The position numbers are program-made. A stretch of 34,380 bases of DNA, from positions 1 to 34,380 of the forward strand of contig JAGLLT010000039.1 in NCBI GenBank assembly GCA_023140385.1. Direction: 5' to 3'. This DNA is from Candidatus Omnitrophota bacterium. Lineage in GTDB: Bacteria > Omnitrophota > Gorgyraeia > JAGLLT01. Positions within the stretch are counted from its first letter, which is position 1. The number at the start of each line of letters is the position of its first letter. Positions 1-3,000 of this stretch are shown here, one piece after another.

Positions 1-3000
1 CAGACTGATCCGGTGGGGTATGAGGATTCAATGAACCTGTATCAGTACTGCCTGAACAATCCTCTTAACTTTACTGATCCATTAGGGTTATTTTGCTGGG
101 GAGAGTTAGCTTGGTGGGAAAAATTTGGAAAAGGATATTATTATGGAACTGGCACTGGAATAAAAGCGAGTGAATATTGGGCAGATAGATACGCAGAGAC
201 AGGAAATCCTCTATATGCTATTCCTGGAACCCTTTCTGAATCCTGGAGGCCTAAGACATTTAGAGGAACAGGCTTCACATTAATAAGTGCGGCTACGTTG
301 GGTCAAGCACCAACAAGCGCGAAGGTTAAAGTGCATCCCCCGCACCATACTTTTAAAATATTTGGAAAGAAACGAGCACTAAAACACATACAAATGGATT
401 TATGGAAAAAAGGCATTAAGGGAAGTGGAAGATCTATCCGCGTGCCATTGCCGGGAAAATAGAGTTCTAACTAAAATATAAACCTTTTATTTTTATAAAA
501 AAGCGACGATCTATGAAAAAAGAAGATTTAAAAAGAGCTTTGCTTAACGAGAAAGAAAAATATGAAAGTAAAACCTTTGATCAATTAGTTAAGATTGATA
601 AACCGGTAACCTATGAATGTGGTTCTGGAAAAGATTGGTATCAGGTTGAGATACAAGTATTAGAAAAGAACGATAAATATGTACATGTCGTTGTTTCAGT
701 AGACGATGGGAGATTGTGGCGGACTATTTTGCCGCTAACAAGCAGTTTTATAGTGTATAAAGATAAGTGAGATGTGAAAAGTAAGAAGAGTGTATATGGA
801 TAAAAAAGCTATCTATTTATTAATAGGTTTTTTTTGTTTTGCTTGCTTCCCGGTGGCATTGTCGGCGGATGAAAAAGGAGATATTGCAATGGAAGATATT
901 TTTCTAAATTTTGATTATCAGAAAAATATAGTTATAAATTCATATGTAGTTAGTGAAGAAGATATTGCTGATTTATTTAAGGAAAGTAGCGAACTAAGCA
1001 ATTTCAAGCCAAAGACCTTTTCTGAACTACAGGATAAAGAATTATTCTTGGTGTTGAAATTAAGCAATAAAGCTAACAGTGCTTTTTGGGGGATGCTTAA
1101 CTGTAAGATAGACGGGATTATAAGAGATACAAAAGTTTATTTGAATTTATGTGGAGCGCATCAAAAAACAGGTAGGTACGTGATCCCACTAAAAGAAAAA
1201 CCCGTTAATATAGATGAACAATCTATTCCAAATGTAAGCACTTCGTGGGAAAAGTTATATGTAAAATGAAACCTAAAGAACCAAAGACGCAGAGGGCAAG
1301 GACCCATTGATAAAGAAAGGTGCGGCAAGTGAATCTATCAAAGAAAAAAAGTTTTGTTTATCTATCATTTTTTATATTAATAGCGTTAACTACATATGTA
1401 AATATAGTATTTATCCGGATATCTTTTCTTAAAACAATCCAAGGAGAAAATGTAATACTTTTAATTACGTTATTGTTAATTGATTTATCCTATATGTTGA
1501 TTTTAATATTTCGAAAAGAGTGGTTGTTTAAAATGTTAAAGTATTTAATTATATTTTTTAGTTCAATAATATGCGTCGTTTTTTCTATCTTTTTCTTAGT
1601 TAGTAGTATCGGAAACTTAACAAAATCAAATATAGTATTTTTGCTATTAGTTTGTTTTTGGTTGATACTATTTTATATTTGCAATTACATATTATTTTTA
1701 AATAAGGGAATGATTATTAGGAAATAGTAAAAAGAATCAGCTTCACTTTTATCCGCCCTAATTGAACTGATTAACCCGCCAATCCGCTCACCGGTTAACT
1801 ATATATGACGGCCATAACTTTATACCCGTTAAAGCGGGAATGAGTTTAACGTGTTAATCCACACCAATTGTCCCACCTCGTAGGTGGGATGGGTTTTTTA
1901 TACTTTTTTAAAAAATAACTTGAAATTAGCTCTTTTTTCTGTAACAATGTACTCTAAATGAAAAAAGAGCGTATAGTTTTAGATACCAGTGTGTTTGTTA
2001 ATCCGGAAGCGAAATATGAATTTGGCAGGAAGCCGACCTCTGCTTTTTTGAACTTTTTGAAGCTGGCTGAGAAGGCAAAAGATGTAAGATTTTATATGCC
2101 TCCTTCGGTTTTTGATGAGTTGATGAACTTTGTTGATAGCAGTAAAATTCCGGATAAGTCTCTGCTCGCCGTACACAAAAAGGCCCCAAAAAGATATGAG
2201 CTGAAACTGCCGGCTCTTTTTCTTTATGAGCTTATTCATGATATTAGAAAAAGGGTTGATAGAGGCCTGAGGATAGCAGAGCGGGGGGTGCGCGAGGCTC
2301 AGGGGCAGGAGAAGGTGGATGATGTCATAAAGAAGCTGAGGCACAGCTACAGGGTTGCCCTGCGAACGGATACCCTGGATAGCCGGGAGGATATTGACTT
2401 GATTCTTTTGGCAAAGGAGTTGGGCGCCGCCCTGGTAACTATTGATAACGGGGTAATTCTCTGGGCGCATAAGTTAGGAATAAAGTGCCTTGAGGCTAAA
2501 GAATTAAAGAGTATTTTAGAAGGATAAACGAAAGGAATATTAATTATGACAGAAGAAAAGAACGAGCAGCAAAATGCTGAAGAAACACCGGAAGTAAAAG
2601 AACAGGAAGTAAAAGAAGTACAGCCGGCGCCGGCTGAAGAAACAAAGCCTGAGGCGGAAGAAGTCAAAGCTGAAGAAGTCAAACCGGCAGAGCCGGCAGA
2701 AGAAATAAAGCCCGAAGAAAAAACTGAAGAAAAACCTTCTGAAGAAAAGAAAGAAGAACCAAAAAAAGAAGAACCGTCAGCCGAACCTGTAGCAGAGGAG
2801 AAAAAGGAAGAAGCACAGCCCGCGCAGGAAGCTCCTAAAAAAGAGGAGCCCAAGCCGGTAGCACCCGCCAAACCGGCAGATGAGAAAAAAGGAAAAGGCC
2901 GGAACAAAATCAATAAGATGACGCTGAATGAAGTTGAGAAGAAAATTAGCGAGACCAAAGATAAGATGGGCAATTTTACTTCAAAGTACGCTCAAGCCCT

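Follow-up and report, generated by a model that had tools for sequence, protein, structure and literature searches.

The HARP gene and its neighbourhood

The window analysed here is the whole of a 34,380-nucleotide stretch of DNA from an Omnitrophota genome (G000; 1.495 Mb in 57 contigs, 92.69% complete, contamination 0.16%), and close to its left end lies a gene for a HARP, a protein-only RNase P. The genomes used throughout are metagenome-assembled (MAGs; 83–97% complete). The features on which the following sections draw are these, the last of them on another contig of the same genome:

1868..1892, (+): terminator-like hairpin of 11 pairs followed by a T run, a pattern match from a consensus scan
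1920..1948, (+): promoter-like site, TTGAAA-17 nt-AACAAT with TG before the -10 element, ending 10 nt upstream of the HARP start codon
1958..2527, (+): HARP open reading frame of G000, ATG start, 189 aa
2546..3031, (+): gene for a Lys/Glu-rich protein of 161 aa with a conserved C-terminal helix motif, 19 nt past the HARP stop codon
3104..3970, (+): RNase HII gene (rnhB; PF01351, 131.6 bits), third gene of a HARP / Lys/Glu-rich / rnhB run conserved in the order
C54:17939-18116, strand not given: empty slot of the RNase P RNA gene (rnpB), between an RNase H-like gene and mraZ

The first-pass annotation had described the gene at 1958..2527 (g00942) as encoding a full-length HARP, and this family membership is confirmed at the level of sequence: the product matches PF08745 (PIN_5) with 193.3 bits (E = 4.4e-57, profile positions 1–201 of 205, cut-off 27), TIGR03875 with 194.5 bits (cut-off 95.3) and seven distinct PDB sequences, each titled 'RNA-free ribonuclease P', at E values from 6e-60 to 6e-40, with 7E8K as the best solved relative (E = 6.4e-60). 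In pairwise alignments to the HARPs of Aquifex aeolicus (Aq880) and of a planctomycete MAG (PbHARP), the catalytic aspartates D9, D141, D145 and D163 correspond to Aq880 D7, D138, D142 and the S-A-D aspartate, which is numbered D161 in PMC8266387 and occupies position 160 in chain 8KD9_A. The tRNA-binding arginines are every one kept, as R97, R105, R112, R128, R132 and R136; their counterparts are R125 and R129 in Aq880 and R108, R116, R123, R138, R142 and R146 in PbHARP. Across 13 Omnitrophota HARPs the four active-site aspartates are unchanged in all 13, and nine of the ten key positions are invariant, the exception being R112 (H in G006, C in G060), so that five of the six arginines never vary. 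The Aq880 alignment is gap-free up to Aq880 residue 185 (residue 188 of 189 here), and thus reaches into the C-terminal helix (Aq880 residues 177–191) that is needed for tetramers and larger oligomers; the helix probably has the same role in both proteins. The gene is under strong purifying selection, with dN/dS of 0.022–0.065 in five pairs within one genus.

Terminator-like sites exceeded expectation in the consensus scan (nine found, 2.9 expected), and the hairpin at 1868..1892, a pattern match only, may close the upstream unit, so that HARP would open a new transcription unit. Because promoter-like sites were not enriched (six found, 4.2 expected), the site at 1920..1948 is a weak suggestion of a HARP promoter. 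Among the sequencing runs listed as carrying window positions 1200–4300, none is of RNA. The Lys/Glu-rich gene is possibly co-transcribed with HARP; its product matched no Pfam family, and an Atlas search with it returned hypothetical proteins only, at scores of at most 0.77. The order of these two genes is kept at all seven HARP loci of the window's order, the second overlapping the HARP stop codon in G001 and G002. The rnhB of sister families sits instead in an rpsP-trmD-rplS-rnhB arrangement, and no simple HARP insertion site is apparent at that locus. No RNA ligase was found among the open reading frames of window positions 1–9284, and the C-terminal domain of the Rnl3 ligase, for which the genomes were searched with PF18330 and not with TIGR01209 or PF09414, exceeded the cut-off in none of five HARP-bearing genomes (best 14 bits), in line with the earlier statement that G000 has no Rnl3-type ligase.

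Loss of rnpB from its ancestral slot

That G000 and the eight genomes of its order carry no detectable rnpB had been reported from RF00010 searches, with the worry that a single model had been used; the absence is reproduced, and in G000 it extends to further models. RF00010 gave no match in G000 at E ≤ 10 (41 candidates scored) and exceeded its cut-off in none of the eight order genomes, RF00011 and RF02357 likewise had no match in G000, and RF00373 gave just noise there, of 7.9 and 7.3 bits. These four Rfam RNase P models, which cross-detect one another's controls, were applied together to G000, and RF00010 alone was applied to the other HARP-bearing genomes. An nhmmer profile made from 32 rnpB genes of the class reached a best E of 12 against G000, and the CR-I/CR-V motif pair, present in 29 of the 32 rnpB controls, occurs once, on contig C9, where it was rejected as rnpB since the same strand carries a 306-aa open frame. 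Weak RF00010 matches of 8.7–14.4 bits, found in G001 and in 8 of 20 HARP-bearing genomes from the wider phylum, were treated as noise; an all-Rfam re-scan of five of these loci, from the four genomes with the best weak matches, returned only a tRNA and a 20-bit, 66-nt fragment of RF00011. HARP itself is present in seven of the eight order genomes, the exception being G003, which is 85% complete.

The position of the missing gene can be read from its neighbours. In all eight rnpB-bearing genomes compared (families f8, f36, f6 and f30), rnpB begins 3–26 nt from the aligned end or stop codon of an RNase H-like gene, and in the sister family f8 it is followed by mraZ, the gap between the RNase H-like gene and mraZ measuring 673–698 nt and containing a 215-bit match to the rnpB profile. 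In the window's order the same two genes are 178–269 nt apart, on contiguous sequence and with no rnpB-profile match, in eight of eight genomes. rnpB has therefore been lost from its ancestral slot throughout the order, and this loss at the level of the locus is the new and decisive part of the evidence; the earlier claim that HARP replaced the ribonucleoprotein RNase P in the order stands more firmly for it. The two other HARP clades of the class agree, with no rnpB in the 900 nt downstream of the RNase H-like gene in any of five genomes and no RNase P family in a permissive all-Rfam scan of the slot, where G023 and G040 have stretches of 734 and 542 nt free of any open reading frame of at least 70 aa.

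The protein subunit, RnpA, is equally undetectable, as had been stated: PF00825 has no match in G000 and exceeds the cut-off in none of the eight order genomes. The concern that so small a protein had been overlooked was met with a class-specific RnpA HMM, which found none among 13,166 six-frame open reading frames of G000 (best E 1.2). Matches of the class profile at 14–15 bits in G091 and G023 span 24–48 residues and were taken as noise, and a 13.9-bit PF00825 match in G007 was also rejected, being a 162-aa frame far from rpmH that has a TFDDG stretch and begins with a hydrophobic segment, and so a putative deacetylase-like protein. In three rnpA-bearing relatives rnpA lies between rpmH and yidD-yidC, and in G000, G001, G005, G060 and G091 these genes follow one another directly; we give this junction low weight as proof of rnpA loss, as the same junction occurs in five rnpB-bearing control genomes from five RnpA-less families. 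More generally, PF00825 is absent from 42 of the 139 HARP-less genomes of the class, and 31 class genomes have rnpB and no detectable RnpA. The absence of RnpA thus stands as first described, whereas the weight it had been given in favour of a replacement does not, and with so many rnpB-bearing Omnitrophota lacking a detectable RnpA, 'HARP-only' calls made from RnpA alone are unreliable. A neighbouring superclade has kept rnpB and shows no recognisable RnpA.

Distribution of HARP and relation to known protein-only systems

The two enzymes exclude one another across the class, as the first-pass annotation had maintained on a smaller sample. Among 151 class genomes, rnpB was found in none of the 12 with HARP and in 129 of the 139 without it; a 401-genome sample of the phylum added 20 HARP-bearing genomes, again none with rnpB over the cut-off, and with G006 the count stands at 0 of 33, so that HARP and rnpB co-occur in no sampled genome. 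Sensitivity has its limits, since class rnpB scores reach down to 85–99 bits, under the Rfam cut-off, in four genomes, and the HARP-less G072, G078 and G131 (84, 87 and 75% complete) match neither rnpB nor RnpA, which indicates that misses from incompleteness do happen. Mapping HARP presence onto an RpoB tree of 61 genomes takes no fewer than three changes, as required by branches whose SH-aLRT support is 95 or higher; the swap has thus taken place in the order and, within the class, in two or more clades besides it, and can be bracketed on the tree, in keeping with the proposed dating inside the phylum. The proposal that it concerned the order and two further families was right about the swap and too narrow in extent, HARP being found in f18, f44, f62 and f35 besides the order. 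The order's genomes form one well-supported group in the HARP tree, and as the HARPs of all carriers are closely related, one HARP lineage appears to have moved within the phylum, with separate rnpB losses afterwards.

Aq_880 and the other Aquificaceae HARPs share with the G000 protein the family, the four aspartates and the equivalents of R125 and R129, and their genomes likewise lack rnpB and rnpA. The G000 protein matches Aq880 with 153 bits and PbHARP with 205 bits. Activity is experimental for Aq880 and predicted for the G000 protein. The hosts differ as well, the Aquificaceae living in hot springs and the Omnitrophota being a different phylum whose reads matching the window come from runs labelled cold seep metagenome, the habitat being that of the label. 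The Rnl3 ligase is listed for A. aeolicus (Table S1 of PMC12153264), in contrast to the five HARP-bearing Omnitrophota searched.

PbHARP ('Planctomycetes bacterium GWF2_40_8'; 7E8K, 7E8O) is the closest solved structure and, like the G000 protein, comes from an uncultured bacterium outside the Aquificae. Its nine residues proven by mutagenesis are all conserved in G000; its basic N-terminal extension of 13 residues is absent there. PMC9051087 describes cleavage of pre-tRNA in vitro with Mg2+, weak at 0.05 μM. Named relatives at 53–58% identity to the G000 HARP include Nitrospirota and Thermodesulfovibrionia sequences. The Thermodesulfovibrio species are thermophiles of thermal springs, with a HARP on a branch of the HARP tree separate from that of the Omnitrophota, and eight of their genomes are given as HARP-positive and ligase-negative in Table S1 of PMC12153264, as in G000; HARP without an Rnl3 partner is accordingly not new, contrary to what had been claimed. 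Nor is this the only such case known: Daniels 2019 (PMC6380272) describes HARP as the sole enzyme, judged by RnpA, in some unclassified bacteria and in a small number of Aquificae and Nitrospirae genera. The HARP-only state outside the Aquificaceae and the ligase-less HARP are thus both in print, and the window's order is a well-supported addition to the HARP-only bacteria, its HARP being presumed active. Thermodesulfatator indicus, Halorhodospira, Thioalkalivibrio, Methylacidiphilum and the HARP archaea have the same protein family, but these organisms retain either a functional rnpB/rnpA pair or the archaeal ribonucleoprotein, and their HARP is mostly dispensable or inactive; unlike the Thermodesulfatator-type bacteria, none of the 151 class genomes carries both. 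The Aquifex, Thermodesulfatator and Methanothermobacter HARPs have each been used for complementation of an E. coli strain depleted of rnpB (PMC12439589).

HARP as the probable sole RNase P

The reading that best accommodates these results, to which we assign a probability of about 0.8, is that a working HARP is the only RNase P in G000 and its whole order, with rnpB deleted from its slot and rnpA gone; the trimming of tRNA here and in related bacteria very probably falls to HARP alone. The protein would be a PIN-like metallonuclease of ~21 kDa whose dimers assemble into larger homo-oligomers, in which the conserved arginines of one dimer would grip the tRNA elbow and the Mg2+ site of a neighbouring dimer, formed by the four aspartates, would remove the 5' leader. 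With the ancestral slot emptied and rnpA lost from the rpmH operon, HARP would remain as the sole RNase P, presumably with no other enzyme contributing.

Encoded CCA and U at position -1 are features that the bacterial ribozyme reads, and the tRNA genes of G000 still look tuned to that enzyme. A recount reproduced the earlier figure of 37 of 39 tRNA genes with encoded CCA (36 of 37 interior genes), and at position -1 U is found in 24 of the 37 and A in just 3. In A. aeolicus pre-tRNAs, by comparison, A is reported to be favoured at -1 and found at -2 of tRNA-His, and a G:C extension to be avoided (PMC12439589), whereas A-1 is not enriched in G000 and its tRNA-His has U at -2. G at -1 occurs in 1 of 37 and 0 of 35 tRNA genes of two HARP-bearing genomes versus 7 of 33 in one rnpB-bearing control, a set of genomes too small for any conclusion. 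The Hydrogenobacter HARP is reported to cut CCA-bearing precursors ~10-fold more slowly, and HARP turnover is given as 10–100 times below that of the ribonucleoprotein (PMC12153264). tRNA-Arg(TCT) and tRNA-His lie 3 nt apart on C9, and C12 and C40 carry more tandem clusters; judged from these genes, a cut by an RNase P-type endonuclease should still be needed.

These tRNA features are among the reasons to ask whether an RNase P RNA was missed, either in the ~7% of the assembly that is lacking or as a molecule too reduced or divergent to be recognised, with HARP as an accessory or back-up enzyme. The incompleteness of MAGs, the sub-cut-off scores of four class rnpB genes, the 10 of 139 HARP-less genomes that likewise show no rnpB, and the ORF-poor stretches of G023 and G040 all leave some room for it. 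Yet such an RNA would have to have escaped detection in every one of 33 HARP-bearing genomes while being found in 129 of 139 others, in slots that are contiguous and empty in all eight order genomes and empty in all five from the other clades, and, in G000, under four Rfam models, the nhmmer profile of the class and the motif search; rnpA is gone too, and we regard this explanation as distinctly improbable. It is also unlikely that the protein belongs to the HARP lineage yet has another RNA-processing or toxin-like role, a different enzyme making the tRNA 5' ends. PMC9945441 does describe several bacterial HARPs as inactive on pre-tRNA in vitro, including four of five from bacteria with both enzyme types, further roles are proposed in PMC12153264, and PIN domains are often toxins. 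The G000 protein, however, retains all the Aq880 and PbHARP residues for which mutagenesis has shown a need in pre-tRNA binding or cleavage, it is strongly constrained, and in three separate clades the presence of HARP coincides exactly with the lack of rnpB; its neighbours are the Lys/Glu-rich protein and RNase HII, with no antitoxin-like partner or Rnl3 nearby, and the tandem tRNAs require an endonuclease.

A binning artefact, with the HARP contig drawn from another organism and the HARP/rnpB pattern from mixed bins, seems scarcely credible. Only MAGs are at hand, and HARP is patchy and horizontally mobile, but the HARP contig is 118,680 bases long in a genome with 0.16% contamination, GC is 0.44 in the gene, 0.42 in the window and 0.41 in the genome, and HARP has the same neighbours in seven of the eight order genomes, which the HARP tree groups with good support.

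Among surviving ribozymes RNase P is the textbook example, and to our knowledge the loss of its RNA from free-living bacteria has been established experimentally for the Aquificaceae only. Published explanations of the swap tend to invoke heat or a harsh habitat (PMC10941002, PMC12153264). Here the RNA is seen to be lost from the very locus of its gene, in a different phylum and in three separate clades, each with close relatives that keep rnpB, providing natural replicates in which genomes before and after the swap can be compared, as well as HARP variants that would have to process pre-tRNAs with encoded CCA. A broader reading, offered tentatively and at somewhat less than even odds, is that HARP took over from the ribozyme on three or more occasions within one Omnitrophota class, in events seeded by one mobile HARP lineage, in a cold, non-extreme setting and without Rnl3, and that with the RnpA-less superclade the phylum shows several stages side by side. 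If true, ribonucleoprotein, RNA without its usual protein and protein-only enzyme would be found together in one phylum, and the replicates would allow one to ask why the ribozyme is abandoned, with heat ruled out as the reason. The proteome index of G000 (IVYWREL = 0.413, from uncurated open reading frames) would presumably correspond to ~52 °C, and the GC content of its tRNAs is 61%.

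HARP gene and its neighbourhood

The gene at 1958-2527 is a real, full-length HARP (protein-only, 'RNA-free' RNase P), as the first-pass annotation had proposed. Its ORF matches Pfam PIN_5 (PF08745) with 193.3 bits over profile positions 1-201 of 205 and NCBIfam TIGR03875 with 194.5 bits (cut-off 95.3), and seven distinct PDB sequences, each deposited as 'RNA-free ribonuclease P', match it at E-values of 6e-60 to 6e-40. The top PDB match is 7E8K/7E8O, the HARP from 'Planctomycetes bacterium GWF2_40_8' (PbHARP), for which excerpts of PMC9051087 describe pre-tRNA cleavage in vitro with Mg2+. 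The surrounding features are as follows.

1-462, forward strand: ORF truncated by the window start, its end holding YQYCLNNPLNFTDPLGL
513-1727: three small ORFs with no Pfam family, one with several membrane-like segments
1868-1892: terminator-like hairpin upstream of HARP
ending 10 nt before the HARP start codon: weak promoter-like site
1958-2527, forward strand: HARP ORF, ATG start, 189 aa
2546-3031, forward strand: Lys/Glu-rich ORF, 161 aa, 19 nt past HARP
3104-3970: RNase HII gene (rnhB), after the Lys/Glu-rich ORF

Residue equivalences to PbHARP and to Aq880, the Aquifex aeolicus HARP, were read off printed alignments. In the HARP of the window's genome (G000), D9, D141, D145 and D163 correspond to Aq880 D7, D138, D142 and the Asp of S-A-D (excerpts of PMC8266387, where the last is numbered D161; it is position 160 in chain 8KD9_A), and R128 and R132 correspond to Aq880 R125 and R129. 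The PbHARP alanine mutants given in excerpts of PMC9051087 as losing binding or cleavage map in the same way, R108, R116, R123, R138, R142 and R146 to R97, R105, R112, R128, R132 and R136, and D151, D155 and D173 to D141, D145 and D163. Every mapped Asp and Arg is kept, 9 of 10 key positions are invariant across 13 Omnitrophota HARPs, and the alignment to Aq880 extends to the C-terminal helix, which Aq880 requires for oligomerisation (PMC8266387, in the part seen). The dN/dS ratio is 0.022-0.065 (Nei-Gojobori, five within-genus pairs). Judged by its sequence, the G000 HARP would be an active enzyme.

The order HARP, Lys/Glu-rich ORF, RNase HII is kept in all seven HARP loci of the order JAGLLT01, the first two ORFs overlapping in two genomes (G001 and G002). 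The Lys/Glu-rich protein, which matches no Pfam family and for which the Atlas gave nothing informative, is probably disordered; its C-terminus carries a conserved helix of ~45 aa (K-I-N-K-M-T-L..E-V..K-K-I..E-T..K-M-G-N..S-K-Y-A). Sister families f8 and f36 have rnhB at the end of the run rpsP-trmD-rplS-rnhB (loci L222-L225); as it here follows HARP and the Lys/Glu-rich gene instead, the locus is rearranged in the window's order. In families f18 and f44, HARP faces a convergent membrane-protein gene (319-334 aa) common to G060, G117 and G023. No ligase was found among the ORFs of window positions 1-9284, and PF18330 exceeded the cut-off in 0/5 HARP-bearing genomes, in keeping with the proposed absence of an Rnl3 partner. 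The end of the truncated ORF we take to resemble the core-to-tip junction of an RHS/YD-type polymorphic toxin, and the small ORFs after it could be immunity genes. Sequencing runs with the window's DNA (X1-X4, from one study, three being possible sources) are labelled cold seep metagenome, and no run of RNA is among those listed; sequence-based temperature proxies for G000 are ambiguous.

The vacated rnpB locus

HARP very probably serves as the only RNase P of the order (probability about 0.8), and the main evidence comes from the place where the RNase P RNA gene, rnpB, would lie. The G000 assembly (1.495 Mb, 57 contigs, 92.69% complete) gave no match to RF00010, RF00011 or RF02357 at E ≤ 10 and only 7.9- and 7.3-bit matches to RF00373, which are noise; these four models cross-detect other RNase P types in control genomes. 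For an nhmmer profile made from 32 class (Gorgyraeia) rnpB genes, the best match had an E of 12. The CR-I/CR-V motif pair, present in 29 of those 32 controls, occurs once in G000, where it was rejected as rnpB: the same strand holds a 306-aa open frame.

The genes of sister family f8 (G083, G013) run in the order Zn-ribbon/CT398-like, RNase H-like, rnpB, mraZ, rsmH, ftsL, ftsI. The start of rnpB lies 3-26 nt from the aligned end or stop of the RNase H-like gene (PF13456/PF00075, preceded by the Zn-ribbon/CT398-like coiled-coil gene) in 8/8 rnpB-bearing genomes (G083 and G013 of f8; G041 and G073 of f36; G011, G050 and G081 of f6; G035 of f30), a spacing that suggests co-transcription of the two. 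Both upstream genes remain in place after rnpB loss, in G000 as follows.

C54:17939-19253: RNase H-like and Zn-ribbon/CT398-like genes at the former rnpB locus, same gene order as in f8
C54:17939-18116: only 178 nt, 34% GC, from the RNase H-like gene to mraZ

The rnpB profile finds no match in the G000 slot even at E ≤ 1000. Across all eight genomes of the order, including G003, the gap measures 178-269 nt and is free of rnpB-profile matches; in f8 it measures 673-698 nt and holds a 215-bit match. Because the slot is contiguous and empty in 8/8 genomes, an rnpB that was merely not assembled is excluded for the window's order, and its claimed absence is confirmed at the gene's own locus. Elsewhere among HARP clades, the profile matched 0/5 genomes (G091, G060, G023, G141, G040) in the 900 nt past the RNase H-like gene; G117 fell outside this test, its RNase H-like gene not being found with the query used. 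A permissive all-Rfam scan of six slot loci returned tRNAs only and no RNase P family. In G023 and G040, stretches of 734 and 542 nt after the RNase H-like gene, at the expected rnpB position, lack any ORF ≥70 aa and any match to RNase P or other Rfam families; they may be decayed remnants or another RNA.

Distribution gives the same picture. HARP occurs in 7/8 genomes of the order (the exception, G003, is 85% complete), with RF00010 and PF00825 over cut-off in 0/8 each. In a class sample of 151 genomes, HARP exceeded the cut-off in 12, rnpB was found in 129 (E ≤ 1e-3) and RnpA, its protein partner, in 97; rnpB and RnpA were each present in 0/12 HARP-bearing genomes, versus 129/139 and 97/139 of those lacking HARP. 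Among the ten HARP-less genomes without rnpB, seven carry RnpA, so rnpB is probably simply unassembled there; the other three (G072, G078 and G131; 84, 87 and 75% complete) have neither. A phylum sample (n = 401) contained 31 HARP-bearing genomes, all labelled 'same class', in families f1, f2, f18 (6/7), f44 (17/17), f62 (two genomes) and f35 (one genome), and rnpB exceeded the cut-off in 0/20 of those newly found. In total, rnpB occurs in 0/33 HARP-bearing genomes and no sampled genome has both, which upholds the mutual exclusion that had been proposed. The best weak rnpB matches (≤14.4 bits, in four HARP-bearing genomes) proved to be noise when their loci were re-scanned. One f44 genome, G397, has a pair of HARP matches of equal score, separated by 6.7 kb (C1:49224-49784 and C1:55917-56477), a duplicated segment.

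RnpA and the tRNA genes

PF00825 has no match in G000, and a class RnpA HMM (25 sequences, divergent ones included) reached a best E of 1.2 against 13,166 six-frame ORFs. Three RnpA-bearing relatives show the order rpmH-rnpA-yidD-yidC; in G000, G001, G005, G060 and G091, yidD lies ≤83 nt after rpmH or overlaps it, which agrees with the description of Aquifex (PMC10941002). The same junction appears in five rnpB-bearing control genomes from families without a Pfam RnpA match (G014, G009, G068, G134, G025; loci L042-L046), and the class profile, which detects controls G011 (85 bits) and G013 (50.5 bits), has no match in six rnpB-bearing genomes without a Pfam RnpA match, including a single-contig one. 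The claimed absence of RnpA from the order therefore stands at the cut-off and is consistent with HARP as sole RNase P, but it is not diagnostic, since rnpB-bearing genomes may likewise show none. A large 'short RpoB' superclade (f4, f7, f9, f20, f28, f31, f37, f40, f43, f47, f49, f50) has rnpB in 30/31 and PF00825 in 0/31 sampled genomes, with yidD directly after rpmH in 5/5 checked; there, the ribozyme pairs either with an RnpA that cannot be recognised or with another protein.

The tRNA genes speak on the other side. An encoded CCA and the identity of position -1 are features read by the RNase P ribozyme, and G000 keeps them, a point against the HARP-only reading: ARAGORN finds CCA encoded in 37 of 39 tRNA genes, as previously counted, and in 36 of the 37 interior ones. 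The -1 nucleotide of these 37 is U for 24 genes, C for nine, A for three and G for tRNA-His alone. Hydrogenobacter HARP reportedly cuts CCA-bearing precursors ~10-fold more slowly (PMC12153264), and the A. aeolicus pre-tRNAs in excerpts of PMC12439589 favour A at -1 and have A at -2 of tRNA-His, where G000 has U. Two readings offer themselves: the swap is recent on the time scale on which tRNA genes evolve, or the order's HARPs tolerate CCA. The rnpB-bearing G041 has CCA in 22/33 and G-1 in 7/33 genes, and the HARP-bearing G060 has 17/35 and 0/35; with one rnpB-bearing control genome, the rarity of G-1 in G000 and G060 is a lead and not a finding.

Tandem tRNA genes in G000 require an endonuclease. 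At C9:2071-2227, reverse strand, the CCA-encoding gene for tRNA-Arg(TCT) is separated from the tRNA-His gene downstream by just TTG, and the G in this 3-nt spacer supplies the encoded G-1; the pair is a naturally occurring substrate for testing how HARP chooses its cleavage site. More tandem clusters lie on contigs C12 and C40. Separately, the genes for tRNA-Leu(TAA), Val(GAC) and Val(CAC) have an identical upstream flank, TAGCGAAGGC or TAGCGAAGGA, and those for Cys, Leu(TAA) and one Met an identical downstream flank, GCCGTCGC, which could reflect a repeated unit or a common processing signal. The tRNA genes with identical flanks lie at:

C33:85843-86189
C54:19280-19604
C33:85460-85929

Known HARP-only bacteria and the number of swaps

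HARP-only bacteria are a phenomenon of known kind. Aquificaceae had been taken for the only such case, a claim that excerpts of Daniels et al. 2019 (PMC6380272) contradict: as judged there by RnpA, a small number of genera in Aquificae and Nitrospirae encode only HARP, and so do some unclassified bacteria, among which Omnitrophota genomes may be hidden. Nor is a HARP without Rnl3 new, as Table S1 of PMC12153264 lists eight ligase-less Thermodesulfovibrio genomes with HARP; A. aeolicus, in the same table, has the ligase. According to a 2024 review, rnpA and rnpB accompany HARP in most of the bacteria that carry it outside Aquificaceae (PMC10941002). Searches of open-access PMC and bioRxiv gave no paper linking 'RNase P' with Omnitroph*/Omnitrophota/Omnitrophica, and no row of Table S1 (751 HARP-bearing genomes) contains 'omnitroph'. 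New here are the phylum, the proof of rnpB loss at the locus itself, the non-thermal habitat label for HARP-only bacteria, and the presence of three separate HARP clades, each with rnpB-bearing sisters.

These clades were placed with full-length RpoB from 61 class genomes (IQ-TREE, LG+G4, SH-aLRT, no outgroup), sampled by hand at 1-2 genomes per family, with 90 of the 151 left out. The HARP-bearing genomes fall in three places: f1+f2 (support 100), sister to f8 (96) and then f36 (96); f18+f44 (100), sister to f6 (99); and G040 of f35, with f30 (90). On this single-gene tree the HARP label needs three changes, and at least three changes are forced by branches with support ≥95. In a HARP tree (132 rows, 197 columns), the order's HARPs group together (98), as do those of f18+f44 (98), the latter with a protein listed at NCBI under 'Candidatus Omnitrophica bacterium'. 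Support for the union of these two groups is 93, and rooting on a Scalindua sequence brings in the group of G040's HARP as well. Since one HARP lineage thus sits in three host clades, HARP was probably transferred inside the phylum and rnpB then lost separately in each clade; repeated sorting of an old genome that held both enzymes would be a less parsimonious alternative. RpoB itself falls into length classes of ~1135-1180 aa and 1230-1330 aa that track the deep split of the class, and a single ~2590-aa open frame at rpoB in G040 and G123 suggests that rpoB and rpoC are fused there.
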